From Stegostoma tigrinum (taxonomy: Eukaryota), in NCBI RefSeq assembly GCF_030684315.1, contig NC_081369.1, positions 2,718,689-2,782,688 on the forward strand: a DNA stretch of 64,000 nt, given 5' to 3'. The notes under the pieces were generated by a model that made no database searches, was not told the origin of the DNA, and saw only the letters and a program-made list of their open reading frames with translations. A program made the position numbers and the translations under genes. Below, one piece after another: positions 25,476 to 62,909 of this stretch. How positions within the stretch are numbered: the stretch's first letter is position 1; every line of letters begins with the position of its first letter.

Positions 25476-25530
25476 ATGTTTGTAAGTGGGTCACTGTGGA
25501 ACTTATGTTTTCTGTGCATTTCATATCCAG
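25476..25530 (+). pseudogene. Copy 1 leader exon MFVSGSLWNLCFLCISYP
   Basis: 55 nt from ATG to a phase-1 donor G|GTACAC. Same length and donor context as the copy 2 and copy 3 leaders. Confidence 0.8.
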
Positions 25531-25858
25531 GTACACGCTCTTTCTTGCAGTGTTTGAATTTTTTTATCAAGACGGAAGAATAATTGAACTGATATTTGAC
25601 GGATGATCGGGCACTTTTTTTCGTATGTTTTTCACGTCAGATTTCATTGTCCCAAGAATCCTCTGGATAAGTGAAAACAATATTTGCATAGTTCAGTTGG
25701 GGCAGAAATTCAGACAGTGGAGGAGAATTCAAAGAGCAAAACATGCTAAATTGCTACCATATGAATGTATTAAATTAATTATGTTACTTCACGTTGCTGC
25801 TGATGTTCCTTGTTTAAGCATTATGTATATATATATCCTATTTATCTTTTGTTAACAG

Positions 25859-26170
25859 TTGCTTTGTGCACTTCGGACAATGTCATACCGGAGTTTAGGC
25901 AAATCAAGACCATGATAAATACAACAGCTATCATGCGATGCCATTTCTCCTTCGAAGTCAACCATTCAAACGCAGATGTGTTCTGGTACAGATAAGGCAG
26001 TGAGACGCTTCTAAAGGAAGGCAGAAGAATACTCTTCAATGTAAAGAGAGGGGGAGCCTACCTTCATCTCTTTAATGTGACTGTCCTAGACGCTGGCACA
26101 TATTACTGTAGAGTCAAAAATCAGCATCAAACGTTCTCAGGGAAACAAGCTACACAACTTGTTGTCTACG
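25859..26170 (+). pseudogene. Copy 1 V-set exon with germline G strand
   Basis: ..TAIMRCHFSF..DVFWYR*GSETLLKEGRRILFNVKRGGAYLHLFNVTVLDAGTYYCRVKNQHQTFSGKQATQLVVY. Cys, Trp and DxGxYxC motifs. AACAG acceptor, G|GTAAGT donor, phase 1/1. Confidence 0.92.
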
Positions 26171-26870
26171 GTAAGTGTCACCGCAGCAAACGTGAAGTTT
26201 TGGTTCCGTTGAAGAGTGAATGCGAGTTGGCAGTTTCATTTCCATAAATATAGACAAAGAATATAAAATCGCTCACTTCTTCGGAATGTCTTGTTCACTA
26301 ATGTGGTAAAAGAAGAAATCATCACCAGCGACAGGACACAGTTCAGCAACTGTACTGTATCAGCAAAAGGTATTTAATTTTGTTTTGCATCGAAAGCTAA
26401 TGCAAAACTTCCAAGTGAAGCACTTTTTTTACAATCTAAGCATGGAGTAACAGAGCGAATTGTCCAGAGGTTATTGGCAATATTAAGCCCGTTAAATGTC
26501 ATTTTATTTTCAATTTGAAAAGCCAAGTTCCTATTCCCCTTGTTTGGACTGCGACCGTCTCAATGCCTGCAATCCAGTTCCCAAACTGCCAATTGCGAGG
26601 AGTGTACAATATGAAAGTTCAAACATATTTGCATTAATTAATATGGGCACAAAGTAGTATTCAATTTTGCAGAATATGCAAGTGATGTAACAATTGCATT
26701 AGGAGGTCCCGACGTGATAAAGGTAACAGCAACCCCTACCAGTGTAAATAGCAACAATCAATGCAGCTGCGATACCCAGAATTAACAATTGGTTCGTTCA
26801 TTAAATCGTTTCATTTTGGAATAAAAGTCTAATGTTCACATGTATTCAAATGTTGTTATTTACAATTCAG

Positions 26871-27176
26871 CTTCACCAGCTCCCCTGAAAATTGCATCGA
26901 TCCACTCCAAAGACCCTTCACCTGCTTCTTTCAAGCTGCAATGTAGGACATCTGGCTTTTATCCGGAAGACTTTAAACTTATTTGGTACAGAAACGGTGC
27001 ACAAATCTTCACTGGATTTAGAAATGTACAGCAGGCAAAAGGCGAGGCACTTTCTGAAGTGGTCAGTTCCCTGGACGTGCCAAATATACCCGAAAGTAAT
27101 ACAGTCTACATGTGTCAAGTCTATCACGTTTCGATCTCATTTCCAGTAAATGCCAGCTACACTGTTACAAAAGAAG
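26871..27176 (+). pseudogene. Copy 1 C1-set exon (reading frame intact)
   Basis: FKLQCRTSGFYPEDFKLIWYRNG...VVSSLDV...VYMCQVYHVSI. C1 signatures CxxxGFYP and YxCxVxH. TTCAG acceptor, G|GTAAGA donor. Confidence 0.95.
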
Positions 27177-27346
27177 GTAAGATTCTATGCCACGTTGTAC
27201 GGTAATCTTTTAGACATTGTTTTAAAAGTTTGCCGAACTTCGAAGAGATTACTGCAGTCAATTCCCTCTGATTATAGCCATCCTGAAATTTGATACTGTT
27301 GTCTGGTTAAAGCTTTCCTTTCTTCAGGGGTGGAGTGGACTTGTTG

Positions 27347-27708
27347 GGCGGCACGGTGCGTCAGTGGTTAGCACTGCAGTCTCACAGCGTCCGGGGCCGG
27401 GGTTCGATTCCAGCCTCGGGCGATTGTGTGTGTGGAGTTCGCACATTCTCCCCGTGTCTGTGTGGGTTTTCTCCGGGTGCTGCGGTTTCATCCCACAGTC
27501 CAAAGATGTCCTCGCTCGGTGCATCGGCTATGCTAAATTTCCCGTAGTGTTCAGGGGTGTGTGGGCTAGAGGGGGCTTGGTTCTGGGTGGGATGCTTCAA
27601 GGGGCGGGGTGTGTGGGCTAGAGGGGGCTTGGTTCTGGGTGGGATGCTTCAAGGGGCGGTGTGGACTTGTTTGGCCTAAGGGCCTGTTTCCCCACTGTAG
27701 GGAATCTA
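27347..27708 (+). mobile_element. HE1-type V-SINE with an exact 52-bp tandem duplication (27554-27605 / 27606-27657)
   Basis: gggcggcacggtgcgtcagtggttagcactgc head, V core and a directly visible repeat. Confidence 0.9.
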
Positions 27709-28084
27709 GTCTCATCATTAGGCTTATTCCGAATGTGTTGTCAGGTGAGGTATTGCCAAAAGCGAATATTCGCCATTGAGAGGTCCCATAATTTTAATAA
27801 AAAGCAGAATGCTGCAATTCATTTCAGAAGATACGTTCAGGGTTAAATTCAATACCTGGATACGTTGAAGAGGGAAAACGAGATAGAGACGAAAATCAGT
27901 CAATAAATGTCGAGGTGGAAAAACACAGTTGGTCAGAGAGCATTCAAGGTGCAGGAAAGTCAATGTTTCAGGCTGAAGTGTTGAGTTTCCTGCTCTTGGG
28001 ATGCTGTCTGACTCGCTGTGCTTTTGCAGCTCCACATTTATTGATTCTAGCTTCCAGCATCTACAGTCGTAACTTTCTGAGAGA

Positions 28085-28570
28085 TGAATATCATCATGGT
28101 GTATAGCCCAGAAACAGACCTTTGGTCCATTGGGTGTAGCCCATCTATTTAAGAGGAAAGGTTAAAATACACAGGTCACACTTTCCAGTACTTGGCACAC
28201 AGCCTTGAATGTTGTGAAGTTTTCATTGCTCGTCCACGTCCATTCCTATTTCTACCTTGCTCTACCCTCCCAGGTAGTGAATTCCTGACGCCCGACATCC
28301 TTCCCCATTTCGTTCTAAATCTCTTGCCTTTCCCTCCACAAATTATGACCTCACGCTATTCACCCTTCAACTAAAGAGAACAATTGCTTTTCATCCACCC
28401 TGTCAATGCCTTCATCATCATGTGCACCTCAATCAGGCCTCACCCCAACCTTCTGTGCTCTAAAGAAAACAGTCCGTGCTTCTCCAGAAATTTCAAAGCT
28501 CAAATGTTCCTAACCAGACAGCACCCTGGTAAATCTCCGCTGCACTCTCCCCAGTGCTATCAAATCTTTC
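28085..28570 (-). mobile_element. CR1 3' fragment split by the provirus (continues at 33827 to about 33960)
   Basis: ...ctctccccagtgctatcaaatctttc joined to ccttcctatagagtcgtgactagaaccgcacacagtattc reconstitutes the CR1 consensus. Confidence 0.8.
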
Positions 28571-29223
28571 CGTTTTGTTAGGCCTATAGTGTGTAACGGA
28601 TTATTTTAAGGTCTGATGGAAATGATTACAAGAAGACAAACAGATTCATTATTTCGCTAATTTATTCAGTTAATACTTCATGCTTATATGAATTAATAGT
28701 CGACATTTTAAATTATGGACATGTATTAAAGTTAAGAGGATAGGTTAAAACACTCAGATATATGTTTAAAAAGTGATTCTCACACTGCCTTTCGGACTCG
28801 GCGGGGACTTTGGCGATGATAGCACTTGGAACTCTATCTCAGGTTCCACGGTGCCCGTCTCACGAACTCCAGCCCAAAGCTGAAAATCCAATGACTGGGT
28901 CAACGTCCCCAATATTAATACTGTTTTGAATGTACTATTACACGCTTTGTCACCATTTCATAAGACGTGCAGTACTGTCCCCGGTATTCCACTGTGCAGA
29001 AAAGAAGCTGAAAAACATCTTCCAGATGGCTCCTTTTTCACTGCATGTCACTGTTTCCCACCCAATGTCATGCAGTTACGTCTGAGTCAAAGAAGGCCGT
29101 TTTTACGCTAAAACTATCATTTTCCACTTGTTTTCAGTTGCTGAATTCCGCGTCCAATTAACTCATTAATGGTTAGCCCTGAATGGTCTGGTTTGAAGAT
29201 GTCAATTCTAAGTCGACATTACA
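28571..29223 (-). repeat. 3' LTR of provirus B
   Basis: Homologous to 32993-33826 and ends ..CATTACA on the plus strand. The adjacent caacaccc is a degenerate PPT (GGGTGTTG on minus). Confidence 0.78.
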
Positions 29224-29599
29224 CAACACCCAGTGATGTCTTCAAAATAGATTATCAAAACCTTATACAAGCACGTACATGCTGGTCGTCAGCTCCAAGT
29301 TCTTTATACATGCGGTATAGTTTACAGGCCATTATACATGTACATAAAGACTAGAAACAAACAGTTTACAATAATGTAAACAACTGGATACCATAAAAGT
29401 TAGCGTACTGCTGAAACTTTTGGTGACCACCTGTTAAATATGACCCACTAATGATACATAGTAAGGGTTCCTACGTTGTCAACTTTGTGAATCAATTGAT
29501 CGCAGCTTTGTTATGGCAGTTCCTTGCTATAAGAAGCCGTGGTGTAATGTTGTCAAGTAAGAACTGATCTGCTGGTGCTCTGGCAAGGAAAGCCTGCCA

Positions 29600-30830
29600 C
29601 TTCTAAAATATCACATGTGTGGGTGCTATGAGCAAACTTCTGAACCCTGTCGCTCAAAAACCAATTGCTGAATCTCTACGGGCTAATGGTTTTCCCCCCA
29701 CAGCAAGTAGTTTAATACCTTTCTCAGTAACTTGCCTAGCTTTAGCAATACTAGTTTATAGAGTCTCAATACCCACGGAAGTTAACAAATCTATTCTCGC
29801 CTCTGCTCAGCCTAGAATAGTGACGAGTACATTTTCCCTGCCTCGCCTCTGTAACGTTGACCGCGTGCACACCGAGCGGCAATGCGAAGGTTATTTATTA
29901 CTCTTCGTTAGCTCTGCTGTCACGTTTTAAACAATATCCGGCTTGGAGTGCAAGTGTCATACAACTGCTGAAGATGGGGAACTGTGCAACACTTAATGGA
30001 GCTGAATTCATGGCCCACATAACTATCCCCAAGATGGTTTACGTCCCTTTATCTCTGTCGTAATTTGACACACCAGCTGATCATCCCGCATATCAGCCAC
30101 TGCAGGGTAATACCTCTCTCAGGAGCTGTTTCTCAAAAGTCTTAGTAAGAAACAAGTTCTGTGGTGAGGTGTAATTAGGTTAAGTGAGGCACATGCCTTC
30201 TCCAATAACCTAACATCGCCACAAAGCTTTGGGTCATAAGAGGTTTGAGCCTGAACCTCACTGATGTTATTTCTCACATTATCTGAAATTACATCCTCTC
30301 CCCTGTCCATTGTATACTCAGCAAAATAACACACCGGCTTGGTCTCTGCATTTTCTTAGGATTAATTTCCCAGCCTTTATTCCGTAGGTGCTGAGTTAAA
30401 GTAGCCGTGTCTTCTGCTGTTGCTTCCTCTGAAGGGCCATGTAGCAATGTATCATCAAAATAAAGGGCTGTTATATCGCTGGGGAGAGGGAACATCTCCA
30501 GATCCTGGCTATTAAACCATGGTAGAAAGTTGCACTGTTCAAGTCGCCCTGCAGAACCTACAAACTGAGTGTCCTCCGCCCTCACTCGTGAAAGCAAACT
30601 GATTCTGTGAATTCTCATCAAGGAAATGAAAGCATTAGTTTGGTAGATTCTGGCAAACCATTCATCATCTCCCAATGACTGTTGCTCCAGTAATATTACA
30701 ATCTCTGGGAGAGCCGATGGCCAACGCTGCGATGTGTTAGTTTAACCGTCAGTCAATGGCCGCCATTCTCCAGTTACCAACCGGTTTCTGTACTGACCAT
30801 ACAAGGCAGGTATACAGGAAGACAGCAGAT
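29600..30830 (-). pseudogene. pol: pol remnant (RT and RNase H)
   Basis: DITALYFDDTLLHGPSEE..LTQHLRNKGWEINPKKMQRPSRCVILLSIQW matches the class III RT pattern YIDD..RGWEINPxKIQGP..FLGxQW. Confidence 0.85.
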
Positions 30831-31499
30831 CATACAGCTTTTCCTGTCACTGACCCTTCAATCGTATCTGCGATATCCTTATGTCCTCAATACTGCTCAC
30901 CGTTAACAATTCGTGAAGGAATGGAATGTATTGGGGTTCCCACTTAGCTTTCCCAACTACCACATTCATCACCATTCATACACCAAAACAAGACTTTCCT
31001 ACTTCGGTTCATACTTCCATCCCCCTCACAACATCCATCAGCATAATATTTTTACTTATGCTGCATATTAACACAGATACCATCCGCGGTGGTCTATTCT
31101 CCATTACCAATCGCACCAGTGCCCGTCCCGCCGGTGTTTCTGCTTTCTCAAATCTATTCATCATCGTCTTACTTCCCGCGTGTCGGGAAGATAGCAAGCC
31201 AAGCTACAATGTGCTGTTTATTCCCATTTTTCCAATGAATTGTGACACTGAGTCGACTCCCCCTTTTGATCACACCTCAGTGTCCCGGCCACTTACCCAG
31301 TGGAGGGAAGAGGCTTCAGAATCAGAATTGGGGTCTCACACCATGGGAGGGGTCAATGTCCCGTTTGGTCCCTTACCGGACTTACAAATCTTCTTCCAGA
31401 GGGAACATATAACACTGATGGTGATACCATGTATTTTCTGTCTATTTCAGACCTGTCTGTGCCTGCTTTCCGTAAAACGGTAAACATTTCATTTTGCTG

Positions 31500-32350
31500 A
31501 CTTTCCCCATTCGCTTCCCGTCCTTCCCTGGGTTTCCCTTGTTACCATTCTCCTGCATGAGCTTGGCGCACTTCCGTATCCACTTACTGTCCAAACAACA
31601 TTACAACTTCACCGCCTGGTCGGCCCTGAGCTCGCCCCAACATTGCTAGCAGCGTCCCTCTGAGATGACTTGGTCCAATGTGCATGAGCTGGATTCTCAT
31701 TCGAGTCGTGAAAGCTTCTTGGTCCATCCCTGGAAATTGTTCGTGTCCAATCCCATTAGTGCAGCGAACTCTGGAATCGGGCTCTTCCCTTGTGATCTTG
31801 TCCGCCACCAGACAGCTTCCTGCTCCCATTACATGAAAGGTCCGGATACTTAGCTCTCACTGCTATGCGTATCCATGCAGCTCATGCTTCTGTTCCCTGT
31901 GTTCCATGTAGAGCATTCTGTGCAGCTGTGTATTTCGACAAGGCTCCTCATCATTGAGAGAAACATGAGATGCCACGGAGTCCCAGAGCCGGGTTATCCA
32001 AGCTCCCAGTGCCCTGCTTTCTGCAGGGAGATTTTCCCCCAAATCCTGCAATTCTGACAGTGGTAATCCCGCATAATGCGAGCATGCTGTGGGCGGTCTG
32101 CTGGCCGTGTCCCCTTAGCAGTGTTAGTTACTAGCGGGCGCGCTGACACTCCTCCCCAACAGTCTGCACGTGCTGCAAATCGGATGAATATGAGTCCCAG
32201 TGATTGGAGACCAGTTGAAGTTAATAAAAACGGCACTTCAGCTGGATTCACTTTCCATTTTTTTGCGGCTCTCCCACTTTTTGTGCTGTAATGTGGCCAT
32301 TTTGCAGGTTTTACAGTTTGACTGTTCTTACCAGCCCGGCAGTTACACAC
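31500..32350 (-). pseudogene. gag: gag remnant
   Basis: LGAWITRLWDSVASHVSLNDEE and DQEAFTTRMRIQL..P..LRGTLLAML resemble ERV-L-type gag blocks (WxLRxWD). Confidence 0.65.
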
Positions 32351-32972
32351 ACCATTGTTCTGCCCTTCTCACACTCGGATCACTTAATCTGCACAATCCT
32401 TTCTCCCCCCGCACTCCAAACCTCCCCCCCACCCCCAACCAACAACCACCATTGTATACATAGTGCCCCCTAAAGACTTCACCAGCTCTGGTGAAGGGTC
32501 GTCTCGACCCGAAATGTTAACTTGCTCTCTCTCCATGGATGCTGCCTGACCCGCTGCGATTCCCACTACTTTTTGCTTTCATTCCAGCCTTAACGAGCCT
32601 GATTCTACTCGGCTTTATCTGCTCTTTCCTGAGCCGTCCGAGCCACCCTCGCCAGCGCAGCGGACAATGTCCCTTTTGCCTCCTTTCAATCTCGCACTTC
32701 CCGGGGCAGCATACGGGAGGCCGCTCAGCAGGATCCACCTCATGTGGGTAACACCCTTGGTTTACTTTGGGAAACCTATTTCTCCGAGACAGTCCTTCCT
32801 GGCACCGAGTCATCCCTTGGGATTCTGCTCCTAATCCCTTTCCCAAAACTAAGTGGTCCTGCCGCAGATAACTAGTCACTAACTCAGGGAACCAATGATT
32901 ACAGGACCATCCCGGGAGACAGAACGCTTCCAGAGCCAAAATATCCTTCATTTTCTTCAACATTTTGCTCAG

Positions 32973-32990
32973 ACTCTGCACACAGCACCA
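32973..32990 (-). promoter_or_regulatory. Primer-binding site, tRNA-Ser-like
   Basis: Minus strand TGGTGCTGTGTGCAGAGT, 2 nt from the LTR end. 14/18 match to the complement of vertebrate tRNA-Ser(CGA) as recalled (TGGCGCTGTGAGCAGGAT). Copy A retains GCGAGCAG at the same place. Confidence 0.65.
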
Positions 32991-32992
32991 AA

Positions 32993-33826
32993 TGTATTGT
33001 TCAGGTGCTAGTATCTAACTGGCTTTTTTAAATTCTGGTCAAAATAATTACTGGTGTATTTCAATATGTACAATGTATTGAGCTAAAATACTTGATACAT
33101 AACTGAATTACAACTGAGAAGCAGTGAAAACTGGCGAAGTTGGAGTCATAGATAACACAGTGTGGAGCTAGATGAACACAGTAGGCCAGGCGGCATCAGA
33201 AGAGCAGGAAAGCTACTTTTCGGGTCAGGACCCTTTTTCAGAAGTGAATTTCTGAAGAATGGCTCCGACGGAAGCATCAGCTGTCCTGCTCCTCTGATGC
33301 TGCCTGGCCTGCTGTGTTCATCTAGCTTCACATTGAATTACACCCTTTCGTTTACACTACACGTATATTAAAGCCAACCGGTAACGTTAACCTACTAAGA
33401 TATATATTAAGCATGTGAGTTTCACACTGCCTTTCCGCTCCCCGGGGACTTAGGCGATGTCAGTACCTGGAGCTCTCTCTCCAATTCCACTGCGCCTGCC
33501 TCACTCCCAATAGTGAAAGTCCAATGAGTGGGGCACAGTCCCTGATATGAAACCTGTTTTGAATCTAATGTTACATACTATTTCACAGTTTGGTCGTATT
33601 TTCAACGCTTTTCCACGCATTCCACTGCGCAATAACAGGTTAAAACACTTTCAAGGTGGTTCTTTTTTAATTGCATAATATTGTTTCCCTCCAAGCCGAA
33701 AGATGCTGTTTTGCAGTAACCTAGTAATTTTCTACTTGTTTTCAATTGCACATTGTCGTGTTCAATTAACCCTGAACGAATCATTCTCACCGTCTGTTTT
33801 GCAGATAGTTTTAAGCCAACACTACA
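32993..33826 (-). repeat. 5' LTR of provirus B (Penelope-derived insert at about 33113-33333, TSD TGAATTACA)
   Basis: TGTA...TACA termini, homologous to the 3' LTR. Confidence 0.8.
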
Positions 33827-34131
33827 CCTTCCTATAGAGTCGTGACTAGAACCGCACACAGTATTCCCGCTGTGGACTAGGTCCTAAAACTCCAAAGTAA
33901 CCTCTCCCCTCTTATAATCTGTACCATTCCAGACAAAAACATGTGCCCTGTATGTTTCTCTGTGGCTCAGCTGAACAAAGAGACTGCAACATTGAAATTC
34001 TGAGACTTTATGTACTCTTTGTATCGGATATGCAAGACTGTACAATTGACAATGATAGACATGACATTTAAACCTGTATATTTACAGCTTCTGTTCTAAT
34101 TCCTAATTTTGAATTTATATTCACATTACAG

Positions 34132-34245
34132 ATTCTGCTTCTAAAATCAATATTACTATGGCTGCTACTGGTGCTCTTCGTGTACTTGTAATTCTCATAT
34201 TGACAGTGATGATTGCCAAAGGGGTTCTGATCTTTATCTCTAAAG
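34132..34245 (+). pseudogene. Copy 1 TM exon (D)SASKINITMAATGALRVLVILILTVMIAKGVLIFISK
   Basis: TTACAG acceptor, AAG|GTATGA donor, phase 1/1, hydrophobic stretch. Homologous to 4213-4326. Confidence 0.85.
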
Positions 34246-34661
34246 GTATGAACAGGATAGAAATGATACACTGAAATTAGTGTATTTGGGAGCTGAATTT
34301 CTGAATTGTACAATTTAAATGACGATTTTATGTGAAACCTCTTTCAAACATATACCTTGCTTCACATCAAGTATGGAGTAAGAAGATTTGAAGTTTCAGT
34401 TTGAGAAATTGGATGAGTGCAGGTCAAAATTGTATTGATGAAATTCATTGCTGAAAGAATTTTCTGTTGCTTCAACTCAGAAAACATAAATTCAAAGCAT
34501 CTGTGTGTAACATTTAGAGCTCTATTGCTGAACTGTTGTTCCTGTTGCATCCTGTTTATAAACACTGATTAGTATTCGAATTGTTTTTGGTTTCGTTATT
34601 TTGCTTATGCGTACAAATTCAGCCTTTATTGTTGGTGAGTAATGTCATTTTTATTTCTCAG

Positions 34662-34707
34662 GTAGGAGAAAGAAAAATCAATCAATCGAACTCAGTATGA
34701 AGATATG
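34662..34707 (+). pseudogene. Copy 1 short cytoplasmic exon (..EKSINRTQYEDM in the frame compatible with the next exon)
   Basis: Pyrimidine-rich TCTCAG acceptor and ATG|GTGAGG donor. Entering the YEDM frame from the TM exon needs a 1-nt shift. Confidence 0.55.
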
Positions 34708-36021
34708 GTGAGGCCAATTTCCTTCATTGTGTTTATTTTAATTTTTAAGTCTATTTGAACAAGTTGAGCTGAGAACACAAACGTGTATTCCTAACATTTC
34801 AGGAAGAGTCTTGAACGTTTCATCAGCTCTCAAAAACACAGCATCAGCTGAATAAAAGCACAATAAAGAAAATAGAATGTAATCAGAAGTTTCACGAACT
34901 TGCAACTGTTTCAAATTGTCAAACATAGCTGCCAAGTCGCCTTGAGTTCTGTTTTCATTCGCACTAACCAAGTGACAGCATACTGAATAATTTTGCTACA
35001 TTGGTTACAGACATTATAATCAATGTTGGTTAAATTGGGCTGATGACTGTTTGAATGGTAGGTTCCCAGGTGCAAGTAGCAATGAATCCTCCTCCCCACC
35101 CCCCTTCCTTTCTACGCTATTCCAAATTAACTCATGCATTAGTCTGAGTTTGGTGATTTTGTCTGACTTCTACCAAGCGACTCTACCAAAGAGCTCAATA
35201 TGCAGACAGCTTGCAAAAGTTGGCTTCTTTAGAAAGCTTTTTATTGTAGGCTGTCTCGCAGTTCGTGCAACGTGCTTCAGCACCATGCAATCTTGGAAAA
35301 CAAATAATCAAGCTGGTGGAGTGATGCAACCCTCTCTCATTTTTAATTTTCAACATGTGACTGTCAGTGACATGTGAGAGGCAGCTCCATGTCTGTGGCA
35401 CCTGAAAAAGAGCAGGAGGGACTTATTCAGAAAAAAATTTTTGGCAAAAGTTGAAATCTTTGGTTGATCACACCAAGGGACACAGCACAATTACACATAT
35501 TTATTCTTGTTTACAGTTGAATGCAGAGTATACCAGCAGATTGCCTCTTTAAATGCATTTTAAAGCAGTTAAAGTCTTTAAATCAAATGGACCACTTTCT
35601 TATCTCTGTTTCAATGGTGGATCTGAATTTGCTTTTAAAAAAAAACTTCATTCTCCTTCGTTGAGTAGAATGCTGCAAAAAATACTCGACTCTTTCATTG
35701 CATCTGATACCTGCAGCTCCTCCCTGACAGCAATGTTGCTAAATGATCTGGACTGCAGTCAAGAAAGCTGGTATGCTGCTGGGCTCTTGACAGGATGCAA
35801 TTATTGGCACCAAATACTGGCCTTGTCACTGACGTTCACATCCTATTTAAAAATAGTATATTGTGCAAAATAGACCCACTTACATGCTGTAGCTGCAGCA
35901 AAATTTAAATTCCTTTCTTGGAGGTCTTCAAAAAATTATGCCAAAGAATTTACTCCAATACTACACGTCTTTCTGTGAAAATGTTGCAGCTGCACTGGTG
36001 TAGGTGACAGAATAAAGCCCT

Positions 36022-36049
36022 CTGATGAAGGGTCTAGGCCCGAAACGTC
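36022..36049 (+). ncRNA. Minimal hammerhead ribozyme motif (Penelope type), best-preserved copy
   Basis: CTGATGA-A-GGG(TCTAGG)CCC-GAAAC-GTC: catalytic core, 3-bp helix II, palindromic ACGT in place of helix III, GUC cleavage triplet. Confidence 0.7.
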
Positions 36050-37503
36050 AGCTTTTGTGCTCCTGAGATGCTGCTTGGCCTGCTGTGTTCATCCAGCTCC
36101 ACACTTTGTAATTTTGGATTCTCCAGCATCTGCAGTTCCCATTATCACTCCTCTGATGTACAGATGCTTTGTTCAGCCTGTGTTTTATTGTTTCACGAAC
36201 TGTGGATCAGATGGAAAGAGAAAAAAAATCTATGATTGAGAATTACCTCACAGATGACCAAAGAGTCCATTTTAGAGCCCTGAAATATTGCAGTTAACGT
36301 TTTAGACAAAAGTCACATTTTTCATTGACACTCACCTGATCATTTTCCTTCCTAAAGAATTGACACTTTTCTGACTTAATACATCAATAATTTACTTTGA
36401 ACATATGATCTGGCATCAGGTATACCTTGTGAATCCTTTGAAAGCATGTTGTACCTTCGTCTTCACTTCACACTTCGACACCTTTATTTATGACCGTTTA
36501 GATGGCCCATTGAAATAATTACCTTTCCTATCCAGAAGGGACCAAGGTGATTCTAAAATTAATTTTCTAATTGCATTGTTAAGGACAGTTATTCCTTCTG
36601 TCTAATTGACCTACTAATGTTACAAATTTGAGGTGAGGGAAAGGTTAGCCAAATCCTGCATCATCTATCATCCAAATGAAAGACATTCGTAACAAAAGCA
36701 GAAATTGCTGGAAAAGCCCAACAGGTCTGGCAGCATCAGGGAAGAGAAATCAGAGTTAATATTTCAAGTCGAGTCACCCTTCCTCAGATCGATGTTGCTA
36801 ATATATTTCAAATAGTCGCCACTTATTATTTTAGTATGAAGCAGCGGGAACTGAGACTTTTTATATCATTATTATATAAAGACAAAATTATTTTTGCCTT
36901 ATTTAATAAACGTTACTGCATGTTCAATTTGTAACACAATGTATTGGAACAGGAATTCACCTCTCAGAATTCAAAAACCTAATTACATTGAACTGATGAA
37001 TGCACTTTTCAGCAGAGCACTGCACCATTTCCCCGGTAACTTTACATTAAAATTATATCAACATTTATAGTTTTGAAAGGTAATGTTTACTTGTGATTAA
37101 GTGGATATTCCAGGCAAGGAACAGTTCAGAGTAAGAAACTGTAAAGTTTAATGATTGTAACGAAGTGTTAGCAAAGCCAGTACAACAAGCTATAGCAACA
37201 AATTACTGCAGATACTGAAAACAACAAAGGCTGGAGACCACAGCAGATCAGACAGCATCCACGGTGAGAGAGCAAGCTAAAATTTTGAGTACTGGTGGCT
37301 TTTTATCAGAGCCCAGATGAAGGGTCATTTAGTCTGGAAATATTCGCTTGCTCTCCCTCTGCATGGGAATTGTTTGACCTGCTGTGATCTCCTGCAGTCG
37401 TTGTTTTCAGTATAACGAACCAATTGTTCATGTCAAGAATGCACAATTGACTTTTTACTCCAAAACAAAATAATCAAACGAATGATTAATCTTGACTTTG
37501 AAG

Positions 37504-37612
37504 AGAAAACGAGAGATGTCTGAGGATAAGGGGACTTTTGCAGCTCTTGATCAAGTTGGTTCTAAGGATGACTTAATATCTAAACAACAGGAAGAAATCA
37601 CAATCTCTCAAG
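37504..37612 (+). pseudogene. Copy 1 cytoplasmic exon RKREMSEDKGTFAALDQVGSKDDLISKQQEEITISQ
   Basis: AG acceptor, AAG|GTACAT donor, open frame. GTFAAL and ITISQ look like Tyr-less ITIM relics of the last-exon motifs. Confidence 0.6.
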
Positions 37613-37744
37613 GTACATTAAAGATCATATGTGTCAATAATAAGTTTGTTTCTCATAATGAGTTGATTTTGAGCTGATCTTTGCATAGTTTTCATCTCGA
37701 ATGATTTAAGTGAATGGTAATTCTACTTCAATGTTGTTTTTCAG

Positions 37745-37862
37745 ACAAAACAGAGAATGGCTAACTTACCTTGCTCTGAAATTCAGTGATTCCAGTACAT
37801 CATTGAAATCCAAGCATGAAGAAAAAAGTGCAGCGTACACAGCGGTGAAAAGCAGTCACTAA
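37745..37862 (+). pseudogene. Copy 1 terminal exon with ITIM-type motifs: ..LTYLALKFSDSSTSLKSKHEEKSAAYTAVKSSH*
   Basis: TTTTTCAG acceptor. LxYxxL plus YTAV 24 residues apart. Phase-1 splicing gives DKTENG*, so the motif frame is shifted by 1 nt. Confidence 0.75.
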
Positions 37863-40800
37863 ATTGGGAAAACAAAACATATTTAAAAGATAGAAGCACA
37901 GATTTTATCACAGATTTTTTTTCAATCAATTTCAATCTGTTATTTTTCTCATCTAAACCCAATCAGAACTTTGCAAATATGTAGATGAATTTCTTCCTTT
38001 TAAATAATGTCACCCGGAACAAGTTCATTTCAGCTTTAAATTTCGCAAAACAGGAAAACTAAAAATTGCAATTGAATTAATTCCATATGTCAAGGATCTC
38101 CTTATTCCCTTTAAATCTGCACGAAGTTTGATATATTAGTCATTAAGATAATTATTGACTTTTTTCTGAGCTTGTGTACTGTCAGATATTCATCGTAATT
38201 CTGTTTATACTGGCAACGCGGACAACGCTGATATTTTCTTTCCCTTTCTCCAGTCTCTGCACTTGAGCGAGAAATGATCGGCTTTACTGTGACAAATGTT
38301 TGCGAGGTTTCTGTTGGTGAACTGTTCTTAACTTGTTTGCGTTCCACTGTCTTTTCTGCATGAATTGATACTTCGCTCTGCTTTCTTTGTTGCAGCAGTT
38401 TTAATCCTGTTTGTACATTCGCTGTTGCTGTGAGAAAGGCCTTGTTGATTTTCCCTTGTCCAGAAAGCTGAAGTGATCTGTCTAATATTTCGATGGTTCA
38501 TTTTGCTTAGTTAATTTGCTTAAGTTCATAATTGGCAGTTTCTTCTTCAAATTTTAATTCAATGTAGAGTGGCACCGTGCCCAGACAATGCAGACTGATA
38601 CTCCATGATTGATCCCCCATTGTTTACCATTGCACTCCCATTATAATATGGTACAGTACGACAAGATGGCATGACTGATGAATGTTTCTGAATCATGAAA
38701 ATCTGTTCTTTATTGAAGTGGGAATGAAATCAGAGAAAAAAGAAATCAGTTTACATTTAAACAAATCATGTTGACATATGCCTAAGCAATTCTTTCAATA
38801 CAGTTGTGTGTTCTATTCTCAGAAATGGCATATAACTAATACAGATTCCAAAAAAATTGCAATGAATCACCGTTAATACAGTGAACTTTTCTTCAGGTTC
38901 AATTGTTCAGGAAAACAAAGCAATCTAATCTATTAACATTGCTGACATGAATGCATTCTGTGGCTTCCGTGTCAAAAGGTAACAAATACAAAATCATGAA
39001 AATGAATTATCAGTCTGAAGAGTTTTGAAAAATTGCTTAAAAGTTGTGAATTGTTGATGGAGAGGCAACACAGATGATGACAAATTCCGTTTGTCTTGTG
39101 GGAAAAGATGGACAGATGCAAAGAGGAACAGGTTGGTCAATTGAAATATATAAAATCATGAAGGGTTTTGACCAGGTAGATGTTTCCTCCCATGGGAAAA
39201 TGTAGAACTATGGATCATGGTTTTTTTAAAAAATCAGAGTTAGACCATTTAAAACAGTGACAGACAATTTTCTCTCGCAGATGCCTGAGTCTTTAGAACA
39301 TTCTTCTGAGAAAGGTAACAGAAGCAAGTTTCTTGAATATTTTAAAGTCACAAACTAATAAATCCAGTGGAGCAAAGAGGTGAAAGATTATCAGGAATGC
39401 TGTTTGAATGTAGGTTTGAGGTGACAGTCAGATTCATGATGACCTTGTCTGAACAACCTTTTTTGGTTTGGTCTCCCAAATGAACTGGCTTCTCATACCA
39501 GTCTTCTTATTGAATATGTGGAATAACAGAGCAGACTAGAGAGGCTGACTGACCTAAATTTGCTTCTAATTCCACTGTTCATATGAACCTCTGCTGATTT
39601 CCTCACATGTAAATAAAAATGCTGACATGGTAGAACTGTGGGAAATCATACATTGCTTTGGATTTTCAACAGCTAAATCATAACATTCATAACATAGAGG
39701 AGTTTATGATGAAATGAGCATACTCAAGTGGGTGTTGGGTGACATTATTGCCTTACAATGAGCATACTTTTGTTGTTTTTAAACAAGAATTGTTTGTAAG
39801 TTATCAGTTGCAGATATCTTACCATTTCATGTTGTGTAATGTTAACAGTGTTTCTTCCTGCGTCACATATAAGATCAGGAAGCACATGAACATTAATTCA
39901 TTCCCTGAGTGTATAAGCTTAGCTGATGGGCAACAAACAGAAAGCAGATTTTGAAAGAAGGACCATGTTTGGCACTGTAGAGTCGAATTGTTGGCGTGAA
40001 GCAAAGTTCCGAGTTTGGACGTCAGCTATTACAGTTTGATGTCAGCTAAAAAATAGAAGGGGCCTTGGGTAATGTATCGACATGCACTCAACATGAAATT
40101 TTCGGAAGCAAAGTGAGTCAATCTGCATTTAAGGCTGTGAATAGGACACCAAACAGTGTAAATCAGTTTTGCTAAAGTGTTGGTGTAGGAGCATATTGCC
40201 AACTGGGGTCAAGGCTCAGGAGACAGGCAGGAAGATGTTTATTCAGACAAAAAACCAGTTGATGCAGGGAGAGGGCCAAAGAATCTTCCCTGAATCAAAA
40301 GGGAGATCAATGGCACATGCTGATTTTTCCAGTCAAAATACAACATTTTACATATTTTCTGTGAAAATATTCAATTACAGATTGGTCACTGTCCTTCCCC
40401 ATTAATCCATATGTCCAATCCCATGGGACACCTAATCAAGGATGGGCAATCCCATGGACAGCCCCAGGTTCCCAAGAACTTATTATAATCTCTAGGCCTT
40501 GGGATCTTTCTGCATATCCTAATTGTTCATATTCCAAAGTTACTGGCTACACTCTTTCAGATCTGTCTCAGGCTTGAGTTCTACTATTTATTGTATTACA
40601 TGTGCCTTTTTTAAAAATCAGATTCAGCCATTCCTCTAATATTTCCCAATGTACTAATTAGATAGTAAAAATACAAAAGACAGTTAGATTTAACTAATAG
40701 CTATCAGGTTAATTTCTATTATAAAGTTAGTTATACAATGTAAAGTTGTACAGCTATTTGTACTGCAAGCACTTTGTAATTAATGGGTTGTGAACAATCT

Positions 40801-43493: not shown

Positions 43494-43511
43494 TTGACAG
43501 TGAAAATCTGA

Positions 43512-50140: not shown

Positions 50141-50169
50141 AGCCAAGAGGGAGGAGATTCTGAATGCTA

Positions 50170-56888: not shown

Positions 56889-58414
56889 TAAGTTTCATTT
56901 AAGAAGTTAATCACACTGGAAAACAACAACACTTGATTGTGCCCACAGAACAAGGAGCCAACAAATCAAATCATATTATCGAGGATTTAATGTGAAGCAT
57001 TGCACTTAAAGGGCACGTCCAAGCAAAAAGAACTTGTGAAATGATCAATGGTGTCTGTCTCTGATATCCGTTCAGGCAACAGGTTCCAGATAACTCCCAC
57101 ACTCTGGCATAAACTGTTTAATCATCTCCCCGTTAAGCTTTTCCATCAACTTCTTTAAATCTATAATTCCCAAATCACTGACCTCAATATAACGGCTAAT
57201 GACCTCTTCCTCATCTACTATGTCTCGGCTCATCTCTGTTTTATGCATCCCAATGAAAATCGCTCTGAGGCTCGTCTTGTTTCAACGTCAAAAACTTAAT
57301 CTAATCCAATCAAGTCCCAACAACAACCTACTTCATACCTCTGCACCGCTCGGAGTGTCATCATTTTTGTGGCGGTTTTCAGTTACAAAATCAGCAGTTC
57401 ATAATTGAAAAGACATGCAGTTTTTGAAGTCAAAAAATAATCATGTGCTTGTTGACTCACACATACGTAAGTGTTTAATCTGGAGACAGAGACAAGCGTT
57501 TCAGAAGCATTTGTCTTTCCTGTTCTCAGTCACAAATGATGGTCTCAGATTTTACCCGCAACATGTCTGTGTGGCATTTACTATGGGATGTTTATCTGCT
57601 GTGTATCTTGTGTGCAGGTACACATTTCTTGTGCTGCGCATTCGCTGTTCGTGATCAAGTCGCAACGTGCTCTGACAAGCACGTTTAATAAATGAATGGA
57701 TATTTCTTTTTATTGTTGTCTCTTTCTTTCAAGTATTCCCAGAACTCGTTTGACACTGGGTCTGTCAGAAAAAAAAAATCAGTTATGACAATAGTTTAAA
57801 AATGGGAAAATTAATTGAAAAGTAAAATTTGGTAAATTGCTTTCGCCACAGTGACCAGGAATAATGATGTTATTTGAATTGTGCAGAACGTCCTTCTTGC
57901 TTAATCTCTGTGTGTTTCCTTGGTTGACAGTTGCTGTGGGCAATTCGGCCAAAGAGAAAATGTGCAGAGAGATTCTTCAGTTCGCATGCAATGCCCTTTC
58001 TCTTTTGAAATCGATCTCTCAAATGTTGTTGCTTACTGGTGGAGAGAAGGTAACAATACCTTTCTGAAGAAGGATGACAGGAAGTTATTCGCTGTCGTTC
58101 GCGGAGCAGCCTACATTGGTCTTGTGAATGTGACTGCCCGGGACGCTGGAACATATCACTGCGCAGTCACATTTAGCATCAAATGGTTGGTAAAAATGCT
58201 GCTGTGCAACTTGCTGTATATGGTAAGTGTCACCGCAGATAAACACGGAGTCTTAGCTGCTTAAAAACAAACAACAGCAGTAAACATATCAATTTGTTAG
58301 ATCCAGACATATTGTGCAAAATATTTGCACTTAGTTAAAATGAAATGTGTTCCAGAATGCGGAAACTTTGAAGAACCAGTAAAGCATCAAAGTTTCAGAC
58401 CTACATTGTATTAA

Positions 58415-59225
58415 AAATAAATCACTTGTGGGATGTGGGCATCACTGGCTGGCCAGCATTTATTGCCTGTCCCTAGTTGCCCTTGACAAGGAGATTGTGA
58501 GCTGCCTTCTTGAACCACAGCATTCCATGTGCTGTAAGTAGACTCACAGCATCATTTTGGTGGTAAATGACAGGTTTTGATCCAGTGAAACTGAAGGAAC
58601 AGTGATATATTTCCAAGTCAGGATGGTAAGTGACTTGCGAGAAACTTGCAAATGCTGGTGCTCCCACATGTTTCTTGCCCCTACCCTTCCAGATGGTCAT
58701 GATTGTGGTGTTGGATGATATTCTCTCAGGGTTTTTGGTAAATTTTTGCAGTGCATCCTAAAGATACACACTGTTGCGACTGAGTATCTGTGGCGGAGTG
58801 ACTGAAAGTGGTGCCAATCAAGTGGGCAGCTTTTTCCTAGATGGTGTCAAACTTCTTGAGTACTTTTGGACCTACAAGCATACAGGCAAATGGAGAGCAT
58901 TCCAACACACTCCTGACTTGTGCCTTGTAGATACTGGACAGGCTTTGGGGAGCCAGCAGTTGAGTTACTTGCTGCAGTATTCCCAGCCTCTGACCTACGG
59001 TTCTATTTAAATGGATGGTCCAGTTCTGTTTCTGCTCAATGGTAGCCCACAGAATGTAGATAGTGGGGAACTCACTGATGGTGATGCCACTGAATGTTAA
59101 GGCATGGATGGTTAGATTGTTTCTTATTGGAGATGGTGTTTGCCTGGCATTCATGTGGCCTGCATGCTCCTGACAACATTTCAGTCCAAGCCAGGATGTT
59201 GTCCAGTTCTTGTTGCACTTGGACA
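58415..59225 (-). mobile_element. LINE 3' end (CR1/L2-superfamily, second family) in the copy 3 V-C1 intron
   Basis: NWTIHLNRTVGQRLGILQQVTQLLAPQSLSSIYKAQVRSVLECSP. Confidence 0.85.
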
Positions 59226-60526
59226 TCGGTTGTTTTAGTTTTATGTATTTATGCATTATGCAGGGAAATTGATAGCAATACTTTAAATTTTTTTTGTATT
59301 TGAATATGGAGTGACAGGATGAATATCCTTGAAATTATTTGCAGTACTATGTGTTTTGAAATTGACGAAGCCAAGTTCTCAGTCCCATCACTTGGATGGT
59401 TTTTAGTTATTTTCTGGGATCCGGGTCCAATTCCTCACCCTGTTTGCAAAAGAAAGGTGCAGTATGACTAATCAATCATGTTTCTATTCTTAAGTAGTAA
59501 CAAATTCTGGAAACTCTTTTTTCTCTAAAAACACAGGAAGTATATTGAAAGTAATTGAAGTTTTTTTTAATTTAATGTGACAAATATGATATCAATTTCC
59601 TGTGCTGCTCATAAGTATAAATAATGCAACTGTCGCGCAGGAAATGAATTGTTTTGTTCATTTGAAAAGTACGTATTTTTGATGAAGACGCAACGTTGAT
59701 TTTACTAATTTGTATTATTTTCCATTCAGCTCCACCAGCTCCTCAGAAAATTGTCTCCATGCCATCCAAAGACTTCCTTTCTGCTTTGCTCAGACTCTAG
59801 TGCAGGACGTCTGACTTCTACCCAAAAGATGTTAACCCTACTTGGCACTAAAATGGTGCAAACAGCTTGACAGGATTTAGGAATGAACAGCAAGCAAAAA
59901 CTGAGGATCTTTATGAAGTCATCAGCACCTTGGGATTGCAAGAGTCCCTTGCGAGCGGGAAAGTTTAAACTTCTTAAGTATATCACATTTCAAGCTTATT
60001 TCCAGCAAAAGCCAGCTATATTGTTATGAGTGTAGGTAACATTTTATAGTGTGTTACATTAAATGCTCATGTGTCATTCAAAATGGTGAAATACGTAGAA
60101 AGTGGTTATGATAGTTATTTGCATGTGATTGTGTCAAAGTTGAATTTGGTTGCACTTGTAGGGATTAAGAGTTTTCTTCGTCTGCGTTGTTAGGAGCTGA
60201 TGTGCAGTTATCATGTATGACTTGGCAAAAACAAGAGATCTCTCCTGAGCAAAGGCCATGGAATTAATTTTATTTATAAACTTACAACGGGCTGAAAGGT
60301 CAATGTTAATTCTTGAAAAAGAATGGTCATATTGAATTTAAGTTTTCCATGAACCCCTCTCATCCAATAGTTCCAATTTGTTTTCCCATTCTTCAGATTG
60401 CCACATGCTTGATTAAATTCTGAACATATATTCAGAGCTGATTGGTTTGTAGCTGCAGAGAGAGTAAAATTATAAACTGAAGTTTATACCTTCGAGACAC
60501 TCAAGCAAATCTGAAAATAAGAGACA

Positions 60527-61522
60527 ACAAAGTGTGGAGCTGGATGAACACAGCAGGCCAAGCAGCATCTTTGGAGCACAAAAGCTGACGCTTCTGGCCT
60601 AGACCGTTTTTCAGAAAAGAGGGAAAGGGAGAGGATTCTGAAATAAATAGGGAGGGGGGCGGACCGAAGATGAATAGAGCAGAAGATAGGTGGAGAGGAC
60701 AGTATGGAGGGGGGGAGGTAGGGAGGGGATAGGTCAGTCCAGGGAGGATGGACAGGTCAAGGGGGCAGGATGAGGTTAGTAGGTAGGAAATGGAGGTGCT
60801 GCTTGAGGTGGGAGGAGGGGATAGGTGAGAGGAAGAAGAGGTTAGGCAGGCAGGGACGAGCTGGGCTGGTTTTGGGATGCGTGGGGAGGGGAGATTTTGA
60901 AACTGGTGAAATCCACATTGCTACCATTGAGCTGCAGGTTTCCCAAGCGGAATATGAGTTGCTGTTTCTCCAACCTACGGGTGGCATCATTATGGCACTG
61001 CAGGAGGCCAAAGATGGACACATCATCTGAGAAATGGGAGGGGGAGCTGAAATGGTTCGTGACTGGGAGGTGCAGTTGTTTATTGCGAACCGAGCGTAGG
61101 TGTTTTGTAAAGCAGTCTCCAAGCTTCCGCTTGGTTTCCCCAATGTAGAGGAAGCCACACCGGGTACAGTGGATGCAGTATACCACATTGGCAGATGTGC
61201 AGGTGACCATCTGCTTGATGTGGAAAGTCATCTTGGGGCCTGGGATGGGGGTGAGGGAGGAGGTGTGGGGACAAGTGTAGCACTTCCTGCGGTTGCAGGG
61301 GAAGGTGCCGGGTGTGGTGGGGTTGGAGGGGAGTGTGGAGTGGACAAGAGAGTGCCAGAGAGAGTGGTCTCTCCGGAAGGCAGACAAGAGTGGGGATGGA
61401 AAAATGTCTTTGGTGGTGGGGTTAGATTGTAGATGACGGAAATGCTGGAGGATGATGCATTGGATCCGAAGGTTGGTGGAGTGATATGTGAGGTCGAGGG
61501 GGATCCTGTTTTGGCGGTTATT
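60527..61522 (-). mobile_element. Penelope-like element 3' part (GIY-YIG domain in an open frame)
   Basis: RIPLDLTYH..FPCNRRKCYTC..FHIKQMVTCTSANVVYCIHCTRCGFLYIGETKRKLGDCF. Confidence 0.93.
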
Positions 61523-62670
61523 GCTTGTATGAAGGTATAATACTTTTTCATGAGACAATCGAAAATACGTTGCATAAGTTCTCAATGACTTCCTACCGTC
61601 GTTGTTCTGTGATAAAAACAAGGCTTTTAAAAGCTTAGCAATTTCAGAATTAAAGACTTCCGGCTGCTTCTGACGAGAGTTTGAGTGCCATAGGATCTCA
61701 ACAGTCAGAATGAAGTGTTTCTCATAATCCGATGTCATTCAGTGAAACATGATTTGAAACTGGGAAGAAGTGGATTAAAGACAAGTTAATAACGCAAAAT
61801 CAGAAATTCCTGAAAAATCTCAACGAGTCTGGCAGCATCTGTGGAGAGAAATCAGAGTTAACGTTCACGTCCAGTGACCCTTCCTAAGGATTCAATGACA
61901 CAAAGTCATCCAGGCGAACCGAGCGCCAAAGGATGTAGAATTACTTTCCACAGGTCCTGCAGGAGACAGATATGCTCCACTGGGTGGGACATTAACGGAG
62001 ATGCTGTTTAGGTAATGGTAGAACTGGAATAGCATCATTGCGTGATGCATGCATGAAGTATTTTGGAAATACAGAAACAGACAAACGTTTGAATAGAGAA
62101 TGGGTTTTGACAGAACAGTTTTCTGTCAGCAGGTGGAATTGGGGATGGGGTGATGAGGGGCGGTTGATAAACTGAGTACATCAGAGATTAGGTTTAACTC
62201 CGAAAAGTAAAATACCCGACTTTAAAGGAGGCTATTTACTTTGGAATTGGAAAATGGTTTGATGTGTTAGTTGTGAAAGCACTTGGCAATTAATGCATTG
62301 ATGGCCAACGGCCCAATGGTATTATCTGGAGACACATGTTCAAATCCCGCTGTGGCGACCGTTTTCCAGATCTGGAAAAGATCTTTCGTGGGAGAAAATC
62401 GCCTCCCTTCTCTGGTCTGGCCTGTATGAGACTCCAGACTCATTGTAAAGTGGTTGACTCTTAACTGCTCTCTGGGCAATTGGAGATTTTGATTTATTAT
62501 TGTCACTTCTACGGAGGTACAGTGACAAATGTTGTTTTACATGCTTTACAAGTACATCGGAACGTACAGGTGCATCAGGGTAACAAGATGCATGTTCGTC
62601 CGTCCCTTTGTTTTGCTGTTGGAATGTACTAGTAGTGTTTTAATACATATTTCCATCAATTTATTCGCTA

Positions 62671-62909
62671 TGCCACCAACTCCACATCTGCCCGATCAGT
62701 TCCTCACTCTCCTCTGCACAACAGGGGAAATTCATGTAGTTTGGTATACATCTGAGATCAACGCAACAGAAGTGTGGAAAGAGGGGAGTTTGTTTAAAGT
62801 TCCCAGTGTTCTCAATCGTGTGGAGAGCGGATCGGCTTTCCGTGCTAGATTTTCCACACAACACTCAAGCCCCCAGCTAGTGTCAGTTACACGATTCAAG
62901 ATGAGAAAT
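62671..62909 (+). pseudogene. Decayed second C1 exon of copy 3
   Basis: PPTP..LTLLCTTG(deletion)IHVVWY..LFKVPSVL..SGSAF, then by frameshift C*IFHTTLKPPASVSYTIQDEK and a T|GTGAG donor. Parallels CQVYHVSISFPVNASYTVTKE of the first C1. Confidence 0.7.

Follow-up and report, generated by a model that had tools for sequence, protein, structure and literature searches.

The 64,000-nucleotide stretch of the zebra shark genome considered here (Stegostoma tigrinum, genome G000; contig C19, positions 2718689-2782688) is called the window, and it contains broken genes of immunoglobulin (Ig) type. Three V and three C1 exons, with 68-73% mutual identity in a self-comparison of the window, mark three copies. 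All three are disabled and belong to an extensive family of V-C1 membrane receptors of cartilaginous fishes, which do not rearrange and likely work as paired receptors. The window itself is a pseudogene patch, and its value is as a pointer to this larger family.

A chimeric receptor gene in the window

Copy 1 (25476-37863, + strand) is the most complete of the three, with seven exons, every one bounded by AG and GT. Its best reference is G1, an intact gene with a four-tyrosine tail of the immunoreceptor tyrosine-based inhibitory motif (ITIM) type. G1 lies at 2.422 Mb on C19, 0.3 Mb from copy 1 and in the opposite orientation. Other family genes are likewise numbered (G2, G4, G8). The exons of copy 1, including that for the transmembrane (TM) segment, are as follows.

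25476-25530, + strand: leader exon, 55 nt, phase 1, from the ATG to a GT donor; 55/55 identical to G1
25859-26170, + strand: V exon (Pfam V-set), phase 1, G strand inside, no GxG motif; 308/312 identical to G1
26871-27176, + strand: C1-set exon (Pfam C1-set), open; 306/306 identical to G1
34132-34245, + strand: TM exon, open; 81% identical to G2 and 64% to G1
34662-34707, + strand: first tail exon, 46 nt, 1 nt short; aligned to the 47-nt exons of G2, G4 and G8
37504-37612, + strand: second tail exon, a relic with both tyrosines gone and 2 nt missing
37745-37863, + strand: third tail exon, a relic with LTYLAL and YTAV downstream of an 11-nt deletion

A preliminary description of this DNA, made from the letters alone, had quoted six motifs, all of which are present in the window. 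It had also read a phase-1 V exon with its own G strand and a true C1-set exon, and both domains of copy 1 indeed exceed the Pfam cut-offs (V-set, 35.2 bits with a cut-off of 26; C1-set, 32.6 bits with a cut-off of 21). The V exon is interrupted in frame by a TAA at 25993-25995, where G1 has GAA.

The TM exon contains an arginine codon at 34179-34181, overlooked in the preliminary description. This Arg, at TM position 17, is common to copy 1 and G2 and is replaced by Gly in G4 and G8. The TM of a Hemiscyllium protein (P0174) carries the identical Arg. The proposal that copy 1 has an ITIM-type tail does not survive, since the frame is lost after the 46-nt exon. The spliced frame would read GRRKKNQSIELSMKI and then a stop, giving a tail of 15 residues that closes at the next exon junction. 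With 1 nt missing from the first tail exon and further losses of 2 nt and 11 nt, LTYLAL and YTAV are unreachable in copy 1. YEDM, also taken for a signaling motif, is out of frame and aligns with HDDV, QEDG and HKDE in the paralogues, a non-tyrosine stretch. Copy 1 is thus of the Arg-membrane, short-tailed type, and its lesions are spread over four exons.

The two halves of copy 1 have different relatives. In the leader-V-C1 part, its introns are 97% and 99% identical to those of G1. Beyond the ectodomain, identity to G1 is 64% in the TM exon and 62-73% in the tail exons, and from 34 kb on the best matches are in the G2/G4/G8 lineage, at about 75-80%. Trees of eight genes group copy 1 with G1 when built from the ectodomain and with G2, G4 and G8 when built from the TM and tail, each with support of 100/100. 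Swapped placements are rejected by the approximately unbiased test (p-AU 0.0004 and 1e-59). Copy 1 is therefore a chimera, with an ectodomain from the G1 lineage and an Arg TM and decayed tail from another lineage. A haplotype duplication was also considered for copy 1 and G1 and is ruled out, as the flanks are up to 18% different and the tails are unrelated.

The remaining family relics of the window are listed below.

43439-43492, - strand: leader relic of copy 2, 54 nt, ATG absent
42806-43107, - strand: V exon of copy 2, ends approximate; a stop and a frameshift
41866-42161, - strand: C1 exon of copy 2, ends approximate; a stop, deletions and a frameshift
57563-57617, + strand: leader exon of copy 3, 55 nt; 87% identical to the G4 leader
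57931-58222, + strand: V exon of copy 3; deletions of 19 nt and 1 nt
59730-60037, + strand: C1 exon of copy 3; four stops
62650-62909, + strand: fourth relic, a C1 exon with a frameshift, from another subfamily; start approximate
4213-4324, + strand: TM exon of a further broken member, duplicate 1
5656-5767, + strand: TM exon of the same member, duplicate 2
4740-4781, + strand: first tail exon of the same member

The V and C1 exons of copies 2 and 3 are thus disrupted by several stops and frameshifts, and neither copy yielded a TM exon. The 55-nt leader said to be common to all three copies holds for copies 1 and 3 in length, not in sequence (33/55 identical), and copy 2 retains only its shorter relic. 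Position 62909, given earlier as the end of the three-copy cluster, is the end of the separate fourth relic, whose matching TM-like exon lies immediately to the right of the window. The C1 exon of the broken member at 4213-5767 lies to the left of the window. The spacers contain fragments that we read as LINE-like (long interspersed element) or Penelope-like, at 7.4-8.4, 16.1-19.4 and 60.5-61.7 kb, and numerous short copies of a family that we read as SINE-like (short interspersed element) or MITE-like (miniature inverted-repeat element).

The family in the zebra shark and other vertebrates

When the genome was searched with copy 1, the V exon gave 30 matches, all on C19, and the C1 exon gave 52, 49 of them on C19. 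The loci form two clusters on this contig, at 2.10-3.03 Mb (cluster 1, 930 kb) and 9.17-10.27 Mb (cluster 2, 1.1 Mb), with one more locus at 13.68 Mb. Profile searches covered about 860 of the 930 kb of cluster 1, 380 kb of the 1.1 Mb of cluster 2 and 20 kb at 13.68 Mb. They found at least 46 V-C1 exon pairs (29, 16 and 1, respectively), a floor that leaves four further C1 exons at 9.30-9.53 Mb outside the count. Both exons are full and open in 30 of the 46 pairs and 16 are broken. These numbers bear out the earlier idea that the non-rearranging V(J)-C1 receptors form a shark family evolving by birth and death, whose intact members lie in other parts of the locus. They do not bear out its picture of a cluster decayed overall, since 16 of the 29 pairs in cluster 1 have both exons open.

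In the family, V is not split from J, and the V exon includes the G strand. A GxG-type J motif ends 25 of the 46 V exons, and both of its glycines are at least 90% conserved in 27 aligned family proteins. All three window copies lack GxG, and the sub-lineage of the window has thus lost a J motif that these 25 exons keep. Each family gene has one C1 domain; the SIRPs P0183 and P0184 have two. For G1 (2.42 Mb), G8 and G13, the spliced models have an open frame and four tail tyrosines. The exons of G8 and G13 match the zebra shark proteins P0004 and P0002, respectively, at 100%, and the G2 model equals P0180. In four related genes, one of them broken, the ratio of nonsynonymous to synonymous change (dN/dS) is about 0.9 for V (0.92) versus 0.31 for C1.

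Several loci have features of their own. The GC donor of the G13 leader (2.84 Mb) is a possible reason for the differing N-terminus in the public model P0002. In G14 the TM is charged, the ATG is missing and the tail contains a stop. At 2.63-2.64 Mb, G6 is a 98-99% copy of G5 without the TM exon, possibly a secreted form or a truncation, and G5 has a non-GT donor following its second tail exon. A tandem array at 9.22-9.61 Mb (L014-L018, L020) has at least six near-identical V-C1 units at a spacing of about 78 kb. No TM exon was found for this array in the stretches examined, nor for the gene at 2.135 Mb. The members at 13.68 Mb (L179-L180) and 9.78 Mb (L156-L157) have a PWWIY-type TM that is conserved in sharks and rays (P0177, P0106). 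Both are early branches of the tree, and the tail of the one at 9.78 Mb is without tyrosine motifs. Broken frames that we read as a gag-like retroelement (no Pfam match) lie left of cluster 1, at about 2.093-2.095 Mb (L212:3117-5046).

Searches with P0002 and with the profile of 27 proteins found family members in sharks, rays, skate and chimaera. Names were read for 20 of the 150 library matches. The sharks named are Stegostoma, Rhincodon, Chiloscyllium, Hemiscyllium, Heterodontus, Heptranchias, Scyliorhinus and Cetorhinus, and the further members belong to Mobula, Hemitrygon, Hypanus, Pristis, Amblyraja and Callorhinchus. Databases have automatically named these proteins SIRP-alpha-like, tapasin-related, NCR3 ligand-like or uncharacterized. 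The named members lie on a single contig each in Heterodontus, Heptranchias, Mobula hypostoma and Callorhinchus. A coelacanth relative, P0164 (XP_005987622), has the identical domain plan, and the family loci are the top 28 of its 66 matches in the zebra shark genome. A tree built from V+C1, with 33 rows, unites the 24 family rows in a single clade (99/98), which the coelacanth protein joins next (87/87). The family is accordingly an expansion, as the preliminary description expected, rather than an ordinary one-to-one orthologue.

The landmarks of C19 are an OSGIN exon at 3.078 Mb, NUDT21 and AMFR exons at 10.28-10.35 Mb and FTO at 24.1 Mb, all four of which are genes of human 16q. The preliminary description had looked to synteny with the major histocompatibility complex (MHC) or its paralogons. 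These neighbors do not support an MHC link, and, on the question of an MHC or MHC-paralogon location, the strongest C1 matches are on other contigs. In the reedfish, fto, an AMFR-like gene and nudt21 lie together on chr9, where the table consulted names no Ig-like gene adjoining nudt21 (PMC10751288 supplement, part 74). Left of cluster 2, at about 9.135 Mb (L226:4500-4730), an exon resembles glutathione S-transferase, with no Pfam match.

Membrane classes and probable exon conversion

The family shows two membrane/tail classes, one with an Arg-bearing TM and the other with an uncharged TM and a tyrosine tail. Among 81 database rows with a TM, which include isoforms and truncated models, at least two tail tyrosine motifs are found in 0/17 Arg-TM rows versus 33/64 other rows. 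In the genome, a profile of the tyrosine exons, applied to 5-24 kb of downstream sequence, gave no match for four of six Arg genes and matches for five of six non-Arg controls; copy 1 and G2 are the Arg genes that retain relics of these exons. Short-tailed Arg-TM proteins are present in at least seven genera, and in Heterodontus such a protein is 87% alike to one with a tyrosine tail.

Genes of the two classes share nearly identical V exons. G2, which has the Arg, one ITIM-type motif and a frameshifted end, is identical to G8 at 308/309 positions of the V exon and across 600 intron nucleotides. Outside this tract, the leaders are 80% identical and the remaining intron 80-88%, and leader, C1 and TM together range over 80-92%. 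For the cluster 2 genes at 10.224 (Arg) and 10.255 Mb, identity is 99.0% for V, 98.6% for C1 and 70-74% for intron tiles, and those at 9.914 (Arg) and 9.865 Mb have values of 95% (V), 86% (C1) and 65% (TM). The Arg TMs of the 10.224 and 9.914 Mb genes are mutual nearest. Among the 27 genes with a V and a TM exon, all four mutual-nearest V pairs at 95% or above join an Arg TM to a non-Arg TM. By shuffling, the chance of four mixed pairs out of four is 0.010 with six Arg genes and 0.028 with eight. The identity tract is confined to the V or the V and C1 exons in three of the four, and tracts end near exon borders in two. Both cluster 1 pairs are in opposite orientation. These mixed pairs with exon-confined tracts are the reason to regard the family as likely paired receptors, and of the two options in the earlier wording, inhibitory or paired, the latter is the better one. 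Gene conversion likely keeps the binding domains of the family alike.

ITIM pairs recruit SHP-1/2, and FcR-gamma or CD3-zeta is the partner of the TM arginines in NKp46, LILRA, GPVI and Fc-alpha-RI. By the same logic, inhibition via SHP-type phosphatases would be the role of members having two to eight tail tyrosines, and activation via an adaptor of the FcR-gamma/CD3-zeta type that of members with a membrane Arg and a short tail. The genome has two TM exons of zeta/gamma-type adaptors; a predicted complex of the G2 membrane segment with two gamma-type adaptor segments scored 0.12, with the mark at 0.34. Gene conversion would likely copy the binding V exon between the inhibitory and activating kinds. 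Copy 1 would be the former short-tailed Arg partner of the four-tyrosine G1, stopped by one recent base change in V, and the rapid change of V compared with C1 would mirror ligand pressure, probably microbial.

Siglec-5/14 and Siglec-11/16 are likewise homogenized pairs, and their activating partners can be null. In Xenopus and human CEACAM pairs, the inhibitory and the activating gene often point in opposite directions and have a homogenized binding exon, and this exon-restricted conversion is described as a counter to pathogens exploiting the inhibitory member (PMC5112662). The CEACAM domain set is unrelated to that of the shark family, and CEACAM activators hold their own immunoreceptor tyrosine-based activation motif instead of a TM Arg. 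Pairing has also been described for SIRP (PMC3716694). By inference from such analogies, the family would work like SIRP or CEACAM pairs.

Several points weigh against a paired-receptor family shaped by exon conversion. The identity peak between copy 1 and G1 is wide, with 97-100% across 25.0-28.0 kb and 83-99% to either side, and therefore unequal crossover fits as well as conversion. Copy 1 could already have been dead and passively converted. The Arg of copy 1 and G2 sits mid-membrane, deeper than in the other Arg class, and G2 retains one ITIM-type motif together with its Arg. Both cluster 2 pairs run in the same direction. The pair test was framed on 27 genes after the data had been seen, and it left out genes without a found TM exon, among them the 9.2-9.6 Mb tandem array and G6 (V exon 98% identical to that of G5). 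The short tails in many database rows may be truncated gene models. An alternative is an inhibitory-only family under ordinary birth and death, in which the Arg and the lost tails are steps of decay and the conversion tracts are neutral by-products of clustering. The frequent broken copies (16 of 46 pairs), the four damaged exons of copy 1 and the state of G14, with its charged TM, missing ATG and tail stop, are in line with this alternative. We nevertheless consider it quite improbable, as decay would have to account for short-tailed Arg-TM proteins in at least seven genera, for the Arg of copy 1 and G2 recurring in Hemiscyllium, and for tracts ending near exon borders in two pairs with all four pairs mixed.

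Relatives, origin and meaning

SIRP is one of the closest known systems. It shares the J-like V exon, the C1 domain, the four-tyrosine tail (as in G1, G8 and G13) and the clustering of inhibitory and charged-TM members, and it is the origin of the automatic NCBI names on family proteins. It differs in its V-C1-C1 plan, in standing apart from the family in the best trees, which do not reject a joint clade, and in the TM residue, which is Arg in the family and Lys in DAP12-linked SIRP-beta; the family also has at least 46 loci. NSFL1C and SNPH are the neighbors of SIRP. In the zebra shark, NSFL1C-type (SEP-domain) and SNPH-type genes are on C23 or C5, not on the family contig. Membership in SIRP is therefore not shown, as the family lacks both the V-C1-C1 plan and the position beside NSFL1C. 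In the reedfish, SIRP-alpha-like and tapasin-related names are interleaved with KLR-like lectin genes at chr12 7.5-11.7 Mb (PMC10751288 supplement).

PRARP/VJC1 shares, in plan, the unsplit VJ, the C1 domain, the TM and a tail with ITIM or immunoreceptor tyrosine-based switch motif (ITSM). It differs in being described as genes of the MHC paralogon, and it is not known to form a large paired family. These names appear in PMC10751288 and PMC11599192. UrIg and UrIg2 are also shark genes with a non-rearranging VJ followed by C1. UrIg is a secreted protein with several C domains, and its gene belongs to the MHC or the antigen-receptor complex (PMC12227049); the family is membrane-bound, with one C1 and predicted signaling tails. 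NITRs of ray-finned fishes are clustered, have the J motif within the V exon and occur in inhibitory and activating forms, differing in their I-type second domain. Shared synteny with NITR was considered and dropped: the holostean neighbors are runx1 and donson, and no cartilaginous-fish homologue is reported (bioRxiv 2021.06.11.448072). B7-H6 resembles the family in the predicted V-C1 rod, and B7-H6-like proteins are in a separate clade. NKp30 has a TM Arg like the Arg members and is a single V domain linked to the MHC. Rearranging Ig and T-cell receptor (TCR) genes differ in that the family V exon contains the G strand, no recombination signal stands at the window V ends (four weak matches within the window, none at a V exon end) and the C1 clade is separate.

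In a C1-only tree, the family and the coelacanth protein group together with support of 97/92 and are separate from the SIRP rows and from those of Ig/TCR-, MHC- and B7-H6-like type; these outgroup labels are our own reading. The V-only tree is without resolution. The trees do not demonstrate the special closeness to the antigen-receptor ancestor that the preliminary description had raised. Searches of the PDB with single domains gave only generic Ig matches.

Three proposals on the nature or origin of the family can be compared. A possible though doubtful origin, compatible with pairing, is that the family is the cartilaginous-fish sister of SIRP from the early genome doublings (2R) and kept one C1. 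SIRP-alpha clusters are the two top feature matches (0.95), SIRPs are the best non-fish matches of the family profile, and they rank third and seventh in a PDB profile search in which UrIg2 is second. The tail has two tyrosine pairs at similar spacing. One COX4 paralogue lies on C19 and one on C23, the contig of NSFL1C, and a 2R-sister relation is therefore possible; 200 kb around this NSFL1C gene has no V or C1 match, hence no competing shark SIRP was seen there. A joint clade of the family and SIRP, with only two SIRPs sampled, is also not rejected (p-AU 0.09-0.11). Nevertheless, the best trees do not join the two, SIRP profile scores are inflated by its two C1 domains, and a penguin SIRP picks no zebra shark locus above Ig C1 domains. 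The COX4 gene is also at least 42 Mb from the clusters, and none of the cluster neighbors found is known to have a paralogue beside SIRP.

It is unlikely that the family is an expansion of a PRARP or VJC1 gene of bony vertebrates, in which case only the expansion and the pairing would be new. The match to the PRARP plan (VJ-C1-TM-ITIM/ITSM) and the coelacanth protein, with its plan, its C1 grouping and its top matches to family loci, would suit this origin. It is at odds with the place of the family on the FTO contig, since PRARP, NKp30 and UrIg are linked with the MHC and its paralogues (PMC10751288). By synteny, a better PRARP candidate is a separate non-rearranging VJ-C1 gene on C14 at 32.14 Mb, for which no supported grouping with the family was obtained (64/0). 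That the proteins are B7-H6-like ligands and not receptors is very improbable. The predicted model of P0003 is a V-C1 rod with a predicted local distance difference test score (pLDDT) above 90 across most of both domains. It fits B7-H6 at 2.7 A over 183 residues and Fab light chains (Foldseek) at about 10 A, and some members are automatically named NCR3 ligand-like. The Z-scores lie within about 1 of each other (14.7 vs 13.7), however, the B7-H6-like proteins, three rows so labeled by our own reading, form their own clade (99/98) in the V+C1 tree, and a role as signaling receptors is suggested by the tyrosine tails, the arginines in the TM and the GxG motifs. SIRP is not among the 50 structure matches listed for P0003, which excludes nothing, and a search for the CD47 family, made without a working control, gave no match.

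Other V and C1 genes of the genome were noted alongside. In the C14 gene (L184), V ends in QVDFEIPPPSQSARGKGTRITV; a second C1 copy lies at 31.99 Mb (L183) and a CD3-zeta-type exon 2.2 Mb away, at 34.3 Mb. This gene is a candidate shark relative of PRARP/VJC1 or NKp30. C60, which also carries IgL-like C exons, has at least four V exons at 8.30-8.44 Mb (L193); the one that was read ends in GNGSKLFIT, a J-like sequence already joined to V. A V and C1-like gene on C19 at 32.49 Mb (L189) groups with B7-H6-like proteins (95/89), apart from the family, and C20 has genes with several consecutive C1-type exons at 34.19-34.48 Mb (L185-L186).

Cartilaginous fishes are the oldest group having antibodies and T-cell receptors. 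In the literature consulted, the only non-rearranging VJ genes named for them are UrIg, UrIg2 and NCR3, and no NITR is reported. No description of the family was found there, in a search that did not reach the papers likeliest to describe PRARP/VJC1, so that novelty in print is not established. The available text of PMC12227049 has 0 occurrences of SIRP, PRARP and ITIM, and a term search for SIRP or ITIM found none in the accessible text of PMC3964593 and its supplement. A large chondrichthyan VJ-C1 family of probable paired receptors outside the MHC has apparently gone unrecognized so far. Its proteins are already public under automatic names (SIRP-like, tapasin-like, B7-H6-like), and the gain is in recognition and mechanism, not in new sequence.

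As a wider and tentative proposal, the family may represent an undescribed, ancient gnathostome VJ-C1 paired-receptor system that lies outside the MHC paralogons and dates back at least to the divergence of shark and coelacanth. Its approximately 50 cartilaginous-fish genes would be the counterpart of natural killer and myeloid receptors of the SIRP/LILR/NITR type, with FcR-gamma-type signaling and activating copies rebuilt by exon-sized conversion, and it may be a 2R sister of SIRP. If the latter is true, VJ-C1 receptors on a second ancestral chromosome predate the antigen receptors. The family would date paired-receptor gene conversion to cartilaginous fishes, and a VJ-C1 lineage outside the MHC paralogons is an extra piece for models of antigen-receptor origin to place. 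For the sharks themselves, about 50 VJ-C1 receptors in inhibitory and charged-membrane forms are candidates for innate sensing of self and non-self.

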